Assembly (NCBI GenBank): GCA_045639065.1
Contig: JAZUCK010000016.1
Span: forward strand, 7,705-71,704
DNA from: Alphaproteobacteria bacterium
GTDB taxonomy: Bacteria; Pseudomonadota; Alphaproteobacteria; RF32; CAG-239
Direction: 5' to 3'
DNA length: 64,000 nt
Shown: positions 49,701 to 51,139 of the stretch, piece by piece
Layout: every line of letters begins with the position of its first letter
How positions within the stretch are numbered: position 1 is the stretch's first letter
Program-made: the position numbers and the translations under genes
The notes under the pieces: model-generated
What the model saw: only the letters and a program-made list of their open reading frames with translations
Told to the model about the DNA's origin: nothing
Database searches by the model: none

Positions 49701-50917
49701 AAGGTCGTGAAAAATCTCGCCACAAAGTTCCTTATGGTACTAAACTTTTGGTTGCTGAAGGCGATAAAGTTAAAAAAGGCCAAAAGGTTGCCGAGTGGGA
49801 TCCGTTTACTGTTCCGGTTATTACTGAAAAAGCCGGTAAGGTTGAATTGGTTGACCTTATCAATAATATTTCGGTTAAAGAAGTTACTGACGAAACAACC
49901 GGTATCGTTTCTAAAACAGTTATCGATTGGCGTTCAAATTCTTCTTCTGCAGGTTTGAAACCAAGTATCGTTTTGAAAGATGCTAAAGGTAAAAATGTTT
50001 TGTTTGATAATGGCAAAGAAGTTCGTTACTTTATGTCTGCTGATGCTATTTTGTCGGTTGATAACGGTAGCGAAGTTAAAGTCGGTGATATTATTGCAAG
50101 AATTCCTCGTGAATCTTCAAAAACCAAAGATATTACCGGTGGTTTGCCACGTGTTGCCGAGTTGTTTGAAGCCAGACGTCCGAAAGATCCTGCAATCATT
50201 TCTGATGTTGACGGACAGGTTGAATTTGGTAAAGACTACAAAGCAAAACAGCGCATTACCGTTGTTCCGGAAAAAGGTACTCCTGTTGAATACTTGATAC
50301 CGAAGGGTCGTCACTTAATCGTTCAAGACGGTGATATTGTTAAACGTGGCGATGCTTTGGTTGACGGTACTCCGGCACCACACGATATTTTGCGTGTATT
50401 GGGTGTTGAAAAATTGGCTGAATACTTAGTTAAAGAAGTTCAAGATGTATACCGCTTACAAGGTGTTAAAATCAACGATAAGCATATTGAGGTTATCGTA
50501 TCTCAAATGTTGCGTAAAGTTGAAATTACCAACCCCGGCGATACAACATTCTTGGTCGGCGAACAAGTTGACGCTGATGAGTTTGAATTGAGAAATGCTA
50601 AAGTTATCGAAGCCGGTGAAACTCCTGCTGAAGCCGATCCGATACTTCTCGGTATTACCAAAGCAAGCTTGCAGACAAAATCATTTATTTCTGCTGCATC
50701 ATTCCAAGAGACAACACGTGTCTTGACAGAAGCTGCAGTTGAAGGAAAAGTTGATGATCTTCGTGGTTTGAAAGAAAACGTTATCGTTGGTCGCTTGATT
50801 CCTGCCGGTACAGGTACAGTACTCCGTGCATTGAAGAAAGTTGCCGCTCAAAACGATAAAGAAATTCAAGCACTTAAAGAAGAACAAGCTCAGTTGGAAA
50901 ATTCATCTAATGAATAA
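46772..50917 (+). CDS. rpoC: DNA-directed RNA polymerase subunit beta'
   Basis: 1381 aa with Zn-finger CLCGKYK…CEKCGVEV, the NADFDGD catalytic motif, and trigger loop/bridge helix blocks. Confidence 0.95.
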
Positions 50918-51001
50918 CTAGAGCAATTTTACGGGGTAGCCAAAAATTCATGTACTATTTGTGTACACTAAAATTTTTGGCTCCCCTAGAAATCACTCTA
51001 T
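50918..51001. repeat. Palindromic MITE-like repeat element, copy B, inserted immediately after rpoC stop codon
   Basis: About 80% identical to 1492-1574. It is flanked by a 21-bp direct duplication (ttcatctaatgaataactaga at 50902-50922 and 51027-51047) that includes the rpoC stop codon. Confidence 0.6.
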
Positions 51002-51139
51002 TTAAAACATTATCTGAATTTTCTCATTCATCTAATGAATAACTAGATGGCAAATTGATTGCTTAAAAAGTTTAAATTGGGCAATTTGCAAGAAAAGGTG
51101 TCATATTTCATAATAAGGCACCTTTTTTGAATGCATAAA

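Follow-up and report, generated by a model that had tools for sequence, protein, structure and literature searches.

A long-hairpin, MITE-like repeat at the 3' end of rpoC in uncultured Alphaproteobacteria and a possible origin of its flanking direct repeat by templated copying

The hairpin unit at the end of rpoC

The 64,000-nucleotide stretch analysed here (contig JAZUCK010000016.1 of the alphaproteobacterial assembly GCA_045639065.1; hereafter the window) carries an rpoC gene whose 3' end is fused to a palindromic repeat, and we describe this element, its dispersed relatives and the way in which the arrangement at rpoC may have arisen. The gene corresponds to the open reading frame (ORF) 46772-50917 (+), with its TAA stop at 50915-50917; the C-terminal part of the ORF matches the Pfam family RNA_pol_Rpb1_5, its homologues are beta' subunits, and an exact-protein look-up of the window RpoC returned no identical record. 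The final codons, GAA AAT TCA TCT AAT GAA TAA, encode the tail ENSSNE-stop. The following features are found around this gene end:

50896-51025, + strand: complete hairpin unit of ~129 nt (H1), including the last 19 coding bases and the stop codon of rpoC; full-length match to the family covariance model R1 (138.7 bits, E=2.7e-29)
50896-50917, + strand: rpoC 3' end (..E N S S N E stop), which is the left basal arm of the hairpin and pairs with 51008-51023
50901-50922, + strand: left copy of a perfect 22-nt direct repeat, ATTCATCTAATGAATAACTAGA (repeat D1, 100% identity)
50918-51000, + strand: core palindrome with arms CTAGAGCAATTT/AAATCACTCTA and GGGGTAGCC/GGCTCCCC, common to the copy at 1492-1574
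50942-50978, + strand: apex AAAAATT-CA-TGTAC-N7-GTACA-CTAA-AATTTTT, invariant in copies retrieved by the apex pattern itself
51008-51023, + strand: right basal arm CATTATCTGAATTTTC (inverted repeat I3), complementary at 14 of 16 positions to the rpoC codons at 50897-50912
51026-51047, + strand: right copy of the 22-nt direct repeat ATTCATCTAATGAATAACTAGA, one base past the hairpin end and followed by the native flank TGGCAA

When folded as RNA, the segment 50893-51050 forms one long imperfect hairpin spanning 50896-51024 (-51.6 kcal/mol, z=-9.4). Pairing to the rpoC end as good as that of the right basal arm, i.e. 14/16 or better, is reached by 10 of 20000 random placements (chance ~5e-4), and it reaches 4-5 nt beyond the left copy of the 22-mer. 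An earlier, sequence-only reading of the locus had the element begin at the first base after the TAA and duplicate the final 21 bp of the gene. The stretch shared with the copy at 1492-1594 does begin at 50918, but the whole unit is larger and starts at 50896; likewise, the duplication is real and perfect, but it measures 22 nt and extends five bases past the stop, so that the 22-mer comprises 14 coding bases (most of the last five sense codons), TAA and CTAGA. Its boundaries match TCATCTA and CTAGA, the two halves of the element's CATCTAGA motif. The site as a whole has a direct-inverted-direct layout, with X at 50897-50922, X' at 51008-51023 and a second X at 51026-51047; a native quasi-palindrome, GAAAATTC, sits where X' ends and the repeat starts, and X' and the second X can form a small hairpin of their own (inverted repeats I2 and I10).

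Comparison of the window with the contigs of its closest RpoC relatives, and with contig L002 from a genome scan, yields a series of filled and empty sites. H1 is present in the window, L002 and L004, the rpoC genes of the latter two being ~92% identical to that of the window at the nucleotide level. L005 (rpoC 86.5% nucleotide identity) has a single 22-mer and no H1, its site reading ..TCATCTAACGAATAG / TTAGGTGGCGAT across the junction, and L006 and L007 (~80-83%) have a single 21/22-mer, no element and ordinary terminators after rpoC. The ortholog comparison proposed in the sequence-only reading thereby comes out in its favour: a duplicated 21-mer without an intervening element is seen in none of L005, L006 and L007, and their orthologous sites, each with one 21/22-mer, speak for insertion rather than a pre-existing tandem repeat. 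The single 22-mer of L005 in particular identifies the rpoC copy as an insertion. By the nucleotide identity of their rpoC genes, the filled contigs group to the exclusion of L005. Insertion of the element dates to the interval between the divergence of the L005 lineage and that of the window, L002 and L004 from one another, and a single insertion in the common ancestor of these three is compatible with the phylogeny.

L004 further reveals how the parts of the site vary together. Its core palindrome carries a compensatory change (GTAGCC/GGCT to GTAGCT/AGCT), and at the hairpin base its rpoC sequence GAAACCTCA pairs with TGAGGTTTC, where in the window GAAAATTCA pairs with TGAATTTTC. The basal difference is a three-way concerted change, in which the rpoC codon AAT becomes ACC, the right arm AATT becomes AGGT and the start of the direct copy changes from TTCATC to CTCATC.

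Directly downstream of rpoC, L002 (5583-5695) and L005 (2256-2367) also carry a second, divergent family hairpin, H2, which follows the second 22-mer in L002 and stands directly after the rpoC stop in L005; the H2 stems of the two contigs differ by several compensatory changes. The window has no H2 and shows an empty site at 51048-51060 with an apparent deletion at the H2 base (GGCAA/.../ATTGATTGC). Family hairpins can also be lost, as H2 was in the window.

A dispersed family of hairpins at gene ends

A metagenome scan with the apex pattern retrieved 16 loci, about eight of them distinct, all of which fold into an H1-like architecture, and the covariance model R1 was built from an alignment of 11 distinct hairpins. 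R1 matches the window at 42078-42205 and H2 in both L002 and L005, and it picks up many more copies in contigs obtained by way of neighbouring proteins; genome scans, metagenome scans and model searches together give ~20 independent copies, three of them in the 64-kb window. The identity of the apex holds for the copies retrieved with the apex pattern, whereas those found independently by the model include divergent apices. Besides H1, the window contains the following complete and partial units:

1469-1598, + strand: second family copy, starting on the TAA of an ABC-F (ettA-like) ORF at 13-1470 (R1, 122.3 bits)
1594-1695, + strand: extra half-element (1594-1670, like the right half of the 42078 copy) and partial left-arm repeat (1659-1695); GTAAAAAACTCGTATAACAGCACATCTAGAGCGAT versus GTAAAAAAAGATCGTATAACGGCTCATCTAGAGCAAT
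42078-42205, + strand: third, divergent copy, in the rplQ/rpoB intergenic region and not at a stop codon (R1, 76.1 bits, E=1.8e-14)
42205-42254, + strand: 50-nt repeat, at 92% identity, of the 42078 copy's own left arm (42087-42136), directly after that hairpin (repeat D11)

That the rpoC element belongs to the same family as the copy after the ABC-F gene, as first read from the sequence, is borne out by 92% identity over the first 37 nt and 84% over ~106 nt, and the ettA-type copy folds like H1 (hairpin 1469-1597). An identical ettA-type copy is found in L001 after a different gene, a hydrogenase-like ORF. Two contigs are particularly rich in the repeat: L027 (GCA_965648045.1, CBFGFR010000002.1, 1-21203) holds eight copies in 21 kb, all on one strand and some arrayed with extra half-elements, and L001 has at 5145-5914, after its hydrogenase-like gene, a tandem array of partial and complete units that includes an N run in the assembly. 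Tandem arrays such as this one may be collapsed or misassembled in metagenome-assembled genomes (MAGs). The family was found only in uncultured Alphaproteobacteria, mostly from the human gut; the hosts, where record titles and protein names give one, are Alphaproteobacteria or 'Acetobacter sp.' MAGs, and the family-bearing contigs range in GC content from 32 to 55%.

Canonical members have the ends 5'-TTAAAGGGGAAAATTTGAGTATCTAGAGCG...CTATCTCAAATTTTCCGCCTTTAA-3' and the conserved mid-arm motifs ATCTAGAGCG / CTCTATCT; they terminate in TTAA...TTAA or TA...TA, and some ends are inverted rather than direct (TTAG...CTAA). The first 26 nt of the canonical unit contain stops in all three frames (TAA at 2-4, TGA at 16-18, TAG at 24-26). 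CTAGA and CATCTA, previously taken for a target motif, both turn out to lie within the conserved left arm of the element itself, (T)ATCTAGAGCG. A resemblance to the canonical left arm is also seen in the native end of rpoC, GGAAAATT[CATCTAA]TGAATAA. Three further ideas were considered and rejected. The left arm is not always derived from local sequence, since most copies have the canonical left arm TTAAAGGGGAAAATTTGAGTATCTAGAGCG; conversely, the ENSSNE-stop tail of rpoC is not element-derived, since relatives without the element have ENSSNE-stop, ETSSNE-stop or ETSSNA-stop tails in different codons; and stop readthrough or recoding at rpoC, where a 17-codon in-frame extension follows in the same frame as in the ettA copy, is contradicted by other copies that stop at once.

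The family appears to be uncatalogued. Rfam searches at gathering and permissive thresholds gave only tRNAs and spurious microRNA-like hairpins far below threshold, the apex pattern has no match in viral contigs, and blastn against plasmids and phages found no match. A shared transposase was sought by all-against-all comparison of the flanking ORFs and in the Pfam lists of the flanks, and none emerged from these flanks, as distinct from whole genomes.

The stems are maintained by paired substitution. RNAalifold on the 11 sequences gives 40 consensus pairs, 24 of which show compensatory double changes; in the model-fitted alignment, 93.3% of cells are paired versus 73.6% in shuffled alignments and both partners have changed in 28 of the 40 pairs. 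These values are matched in none of 500 shuffles, and in slid controls pairing stays at <=55%. Of the 479 cells at paired positions, 434 are Watson-Crick, 13 G.U, 11 A.C and 21 other, and many stem changes are transversion swaps unable to pass through a G.U intermediate. This lack of an RNA-type wobble excess, together with the orientation by replication strand described below, suggests constraints at the DNA level: each arm behaves like a reverse-complement DNA copy held in step with the other. Arms of this kind are a known product of replication template switching (PMC8794818).

The association with stop codons put forward in the sequence-only reading extends to the family at large, with ~13 of the ~20 independent copies starting -2 to +3 nt from the end of a co-oriented stop codon or overlapping the gene end, in the latter case by 14-25 nt. 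The genes concerned include rpoC, ettA, a hydA-like and a gatB-like gene, pyk, ftsW, a parC-like gene and PFOR (in two species), among others; copies away from stop codons lie in arrays or 5' regions, as does the 42078-42205 copy between rplQ and rpoB. Hairpins follow the PFOR stop in both L027 and L024, and also distantly related hydrogenase-like genes in L001 and L009.

In one protein family, the element also contributes to the product. FAD-dependent oxidoreductases (proteins P0188-P0213) share a core that ends ..AADG(V/L)K and is followed by a tail read from the left arm, such as ..GANLSI-stop, ..CVQNLSI-stop or ..KGVNFAIEF-stop, the ..NLSI-stop tails arising from a left arm read as AAT TTG AGT ATC TAG. 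The element can therefore supply a short C-terminal tail and a stop codon. Such left-arm-encoded tails and stops occur in L027 (11776-13450), L028 (716-2352) and L029 (1103-2782), in orthologues 60-88% identical; a clean empty site for the L027 copies was sought in L028 and L029, and none was found, as the intergenic regions are too diverged.

Finally, the hairpins keep to one DNA strand. Their sense strand is the G-rich strand at 13 of 14 loci, and in L027, L026 and the window, where genes of either orientation show positive GC skew on the hairpin sense strand, all 12 strand-inferable copies lie on the G-rich (leading) strand (sign test, 5e-4). The copies in L027 hold their strand even among oppositely oriented genes, and orientation thus follows the direction of replication, a DNA-level property.

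Origin of the arrangement at rpoC

We lean, if only slightly, towards a reading in which 50896-51025 is one copy of a ~129-nt, long-hairpin, MITE-like family (MITE, miniature inverted-repeat transposable element) and the repeat at rpoC is the product of templated copying or recombination rather than of a fixed staggered cut. The hairpin base would accordingly consist of three parts: X, which is the native end of rpoC; X', the right arm complementary to it; and a second X in direct orientation. The X-core-X'-X arrangement could have been built by replication template switching, by snap-back or by short-homology recombination, the last of these at the CTAGA and TCATCTA microhomologies. The positions of the repeat boundaries at these two motifs are consistent with microhomology-guided switches, and template switching is documented as creating and repairing hairpins (PMC8794818). 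Whether the L004 state reflects a later conversion or an independent insertion, local rpoC sequence was the template for both the right arm and the second copy, and the 22-nt repeat was most likely left behind by template switching or recombination, not made as a fixed target-site duplication.

The target-site duplication seen in the sequence-only reading belongs to an explanation by classical MITE transposition, in which a transposase acting in trans would make ~22-bp staggered cuts and leave a true duplication, the fit of the right arm being due to chance or later adaptation. The filled and empty sites indeed differ by exactly the element and one repeat copy, the canonical TTAA...TTAA or TA ends are like those of many bacterial MITEs (PMC2229807), and the Yersinia element YPAL is reported to make 3-26 bp duplications beside dyad symmetries (PMC2229807). 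We nevertheless consider this explanation doubtful. The left copy of the 22-mer lies inside the hairpin stem and pairs with the right arm, with pairing that continues 4-5 nt past the repeat, and at other copies the repeats are absent or variable. About half of the copies have no flanking repeat (L020, L021, L010, L009, L026); in the others, often imperfect, it measures 13-16 nt in L004, 22 nt in the window and L002, ~23-35 nt at the ettA copy, where it is imperfect, 38 nt at H2 in L002 and 50 nt at the 42078 copy. Every flanking repeat re-iterates the left arm of its own hairpin, or else the copy stands in a tandem array (L001, L012, L027). What looks like the left repeat at the ettA copy recurs unaltered in L001 behind another gene; there it hence belongs to the element, with which it moves. 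The X-core-X'-X layout and the three-way concerted change in L004 are less well explained by a fixed staggered transposase cut, and the flanks have no transposase in common.

Several observations weigh against the interpretation by templated copying, or against parts of it. The canonical right-arm consensus, TATCTCAAATTTTCC, is similar at 12 of 15 positions to the right arm of the rpoC copy, and rpoC natively ends in a sequence that happens to be like the canonical left arm, so that some of the complementarity could be older than the insertion; such a fit may itself have favoured this site. For the rpoC copy there is a single clean pair of empty and filled sites, which leaves several possible courses: the core may have inserted first and template switching come later, a donor array may have recombined with the site in one step, or the L004 and window lineages may have received separate insertions. 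No mobilising enzyme is found and no transposition intermediate is visible, and the preference for stop codons is left unexplained. As to a function of the transcribed element, the case for one at the RNA level is argued from position; the antisense strand folds better than the sense strand in 12 of 12 copies, the sense strand being penalised where A faces C (A.C or C.A) at three conserved positions, of which the apex holds two; and the slow divergence reported below could come from gene conversion among copies rather than from selection.

Such a function is suggested by what follows H1:

51093-51126, + strand: probable terminator-like hairpin followed by TTTTTTG, downstream of H1 (inverted repeat I9, with a loop too long for the terminator scanner)
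51141-51173, strand not assigned: perfect 14-bp terminator-like hairpin with A and T tracts, between rpoC and the convergent gene 51186-52076 (inverted repeat I7 and scanner)

Lying between the stop codon and these two hairpins, H1 should belong to the 3' untranslated region (UTR) of rpoC. Once inserted, the element would be co-transcribed there, and as such hairpins are usually barriers to or processing sites for mRNA decay, H1 may by likeness to ERIC, Correia and REP (PMC2229807) act as a 3'-exonuclease barrier or as a processing site that modulates decay. A role as a transcript-stabilising 3' hairpin, raised in the sequence-only reading, is plausible judging by position. In line with some constraint, element identity between lineages (0.96, 0.89 and 0.86) exceeds that of rpoC third codon positions (0.79, 0.78 and 0.75; p 2e-7, 3e-3 and 5e-3), and the right 22-mer copy is 22/22 identical between the window and L002, against a third-codon-position identity of 0.79 (p=0.005). 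Since its insertion, the rpoC element has evolved more slowly than synonymous sites, due either to purifying selection or to conversion.

These data bear on a second alternative, which we find quite unlikely as the primary explanation, although it may coexist with DNA mobility: the element would be first of all a structured RNA of the 3' UTR under selection for pairing, with the second 22-mer as an alternative partner of the right arm when the terminating ribosome melts the basal stem, which would make a switch that responds to translation. The position of the element after the stop codon and before the terminator-like hairpins, in the orientation of the gene upstream, the stop codon in or at the basal stem, the strong covariation, conservation above that of synonymous sites, and the small hairpin available to the right arm and second X (I2, I10) would all suit such a structure. 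Typical RNA helices, however, do not have G.U pairs as rare as A.C juxtapositions (13 vs 11 of 479), and the better folding of the antisense strand in all 12 copies, the strand constancy of the L027 copies among opposite genes, the absence of a 22-mer-type repeat from many copies and the lack of an Rfam match all point away from it.

A third alternative does without a new arrival from another place and invokes local unequal recombination or gene conversion among resident family members, by which the left arm of an ancestral H2 (CTAGATGGCAATTT) and that of another copy (CTAGAGCAATTT) would have recombined to duplicate 'rpoC end + hairpin', H2 being later deleted in the window. The location of H2, which comes next to the rpoC stop in L005 and behind the second 22-mer in L002, fits this scheme, as do the repeat similarity in L002, which runs past the 22-mer into GCAATTT, the frequency of tandem and partial units (L001, L012, L027, and 1594-1695 and 42205-42254 in the window), and the loss of H2 from the window, apparently by deletion at the hairpin base. 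Inspection shows, however, that the stems of H1 are unlike those of H2, as is part of its apex, and the 84% identity of H1 to the ettA copy requires a source at another locus; we judge this scheme improbable for the rpoC site. Chance similarity or an assembly artefact, for which nothing speaks beyond the metagenomic origin of the assemblies, can be dismissed, since the exact 22-mer is found twice in a pattern scan of the window against 0.06 expected, the model E-value is 1e-29, and the same element and repeat recur in two other assemblies, L002 and L004, making three independent assemblies with the same structure at 86-96% identity.

As a more speculative extension of the templated-copying reading, and one to which we attach rather little likelihood, the element might be mobilised as single-stranded DNA on the lagging-strand template by an enzyme recognising the apex and integrate at left-arm-like gene 3' ends, where snap-back would tailor the hairpin base to the target; the outcome would be a self-fitting element, joined to the stop codon and able to rewrite the stop and C-terminal tail of host genes.

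A comparable layout exists in the window outside the family. At the tRNA-Trp gene (4434-4509), the last 19 nt and the terminator (4491-4540) are repeated exactly at 4671-4720, and 4543-4575 is a diverged inverted copy of the tRNA 3' end; gene end, terminator and inverted copy form one long hairpin with a DNA fold of -61.8 kcal/mol (z=-8.9). The locus repeats the X-hairpin-X'-X layout of the rpoC site with the native terminator as apex; hairpins in this genome thus seem to undergo such events even without a member of the family.

Other repeats were noted in the window. In the tRNA-Gln region (minus strand; 11966-12240), 49 nt at 11995-12043 recur at 12192-12240 with 82% identity and enclose a GC-richer insert of ~148 nt that has no clear similarity to the tRNA-Trp insert; beside this region, a 198-nt direct repeat of 92% identity occupies 10533-10730 and 11765-11962, at a spacing of 1232 nt. 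Positions 56221-56623 consist of 15-nt periodic repeats that probably encode a pentapeptide-repeat-like protein, and direct repeat D5 links 16004-16079 and 51513-51588 (76 nt, 75% identity, same strand), its second copy lying inside ORF 51186-52076.

Comparison with known repeat systems

The family files best with the MITE-type palindromic repeats of bacteria, while lying outside the known families by sequence or by defining features; ERIC, Correia and YPAL are set apart here on their descriptions rather than on a comparison of sequences. With the MITE class (Correia/ERIC/RUP) it shares a size below 200 bp (129 nt), a non-coding, multi-copy and dispersed nature, an inverted-repeat stem that gives one long hairpin in every copy, and filled and empty sites between relatives; the class usually has a short fixed TA duplication, and here canonical copies end in TTAA...TTAA or TA...TA, some copies have inverted ends, and the rpoC copy has instead a 22-nt repeat overlapping the stem. 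In its long and variable duplications the family comes nearest to YPAL (RU-2) of Yersinia, a non-coding palindrome of 168 bp with a single long stem-loop, reported duplications of 3-26 bp at or beside dyad symmetries, and empty and filled sites between close relatives (PMC2229807). The corresponding lengths in our family are 0, 13-22, ~23-35, 38 and 50 nt, as re-iterated left arms; YPAL differs in host group and length, and by description a stop-codon seat, an invariant apex and a target within the stem are not reported for it. In size and transcript context, the nearest relatives are ERIC/IRU (RU-1, 127 bp), which together with Correia/NEMIS are described (PMC2229807; PMC2759123) as imperfect palindromes of ~105-155 bp that are transcribed from intergenic regions with their neighbours, form long RNA hairpins affecting mRNA processing and stability, are in some cases fused to ORFs and have TA termini. 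These elements duplicate TA only, and, again compared by description, a link to stop codons and a strict strand bias are not known for ERIC or Correia.

With regard to translation, the nearest system is that of the Rickettsia palindromic elements (RPE), which add internal peptides by inserting in frame inside genes. RPEs are alphaproteobacterial palindromes translatable within host proteins (see the reference to Claverie and Ogata in PMC2267715). The present family, by contrast, attaches at the extreme 3' end of genes and has stops in all three frames within its first 26 nt.

REP/BIME (REPIN) repeats and palindromes derived from IS200/IS605 resemble the family in forming 3' UTR hairpins and in replication-strand orientation, the family lying on the G-rich strand in 12 of 12 strand-inferable copies. 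An orientation linked to the replication strand is expected of single-strand DNA mobilisation, as in the IS608 and RAYT systems, which leave no fixed target duplication. Membership in either group was nonetheless rejected. REPs are 20-40 bp long with a GTAG or CGTC tag (PMC3733652); our unit has 129 nt, its GTAG at 50936-50939 is not conserved among copies, and no RAYT is seen in the flanks. Elements derived from IS200/IS605 have separate subterminal hairpins at their two ends and insert 3' of a fixed tetra- or pentanucleotide; against such an element stand the single end-to-end hairpin, the lack of a constant flanking tetranucleotide and the absence of a TnpA or TnpB gene from the flanks. Integron attC sites show the opposite pattern, with conserved core sites RYYYAAC / GTTRRRY at the base, a variable centre and cassette arrays beside an integrase, whereas the family has a conserved apex and a variable base, and its copies follow the housekeeping genes rpoC, parC and ftsW; an attC identity is thus rejected as well. 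So is an intrinsic terminator, in which a short GC-rich stem runs directly into a U tract, as the scanner calls none at 50896-51025, where a long, AT-rich stem is followed by UCAUUCAUC; some other copies (ettA, L016) end in U6-7.

For a bacterial MITE, the family is unusual in its fusion to stop codons, including those of essential genes (rpoC, parC, ftsW), with C-terminal residues and stop encoded by the element in one protein family, in its strict replication-strand orientation, and in its Watson-Crick double substitutions without wobble intermediates. In practical terms, a usable covariance model now defines a repeat family that is abundant in poorly known gut Alphaproteobacteria, and annotators of these genomes should be aware that short C-terminal tails and 'terminators' may be repeat-derived.

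The last point of comparison is a mutational process rather than an element family. Template switching, quasipalindrome correction and tandem inversion duplication share with the rpoC site the direct-inverted-direct layout around a hairpin, and template-switch changes give multi-base compensation in one step and Watson-Crick arms, with no G.U intermediates (PMC8794818). Such a process leaves the conserved apex and the spread of the core to many loci unexplained. The unusual features of the family make it a natural system for studying the creation and repair of hairpin repeats by template switching, and the reshaping of gene ends and 3' UTRs by repeats.

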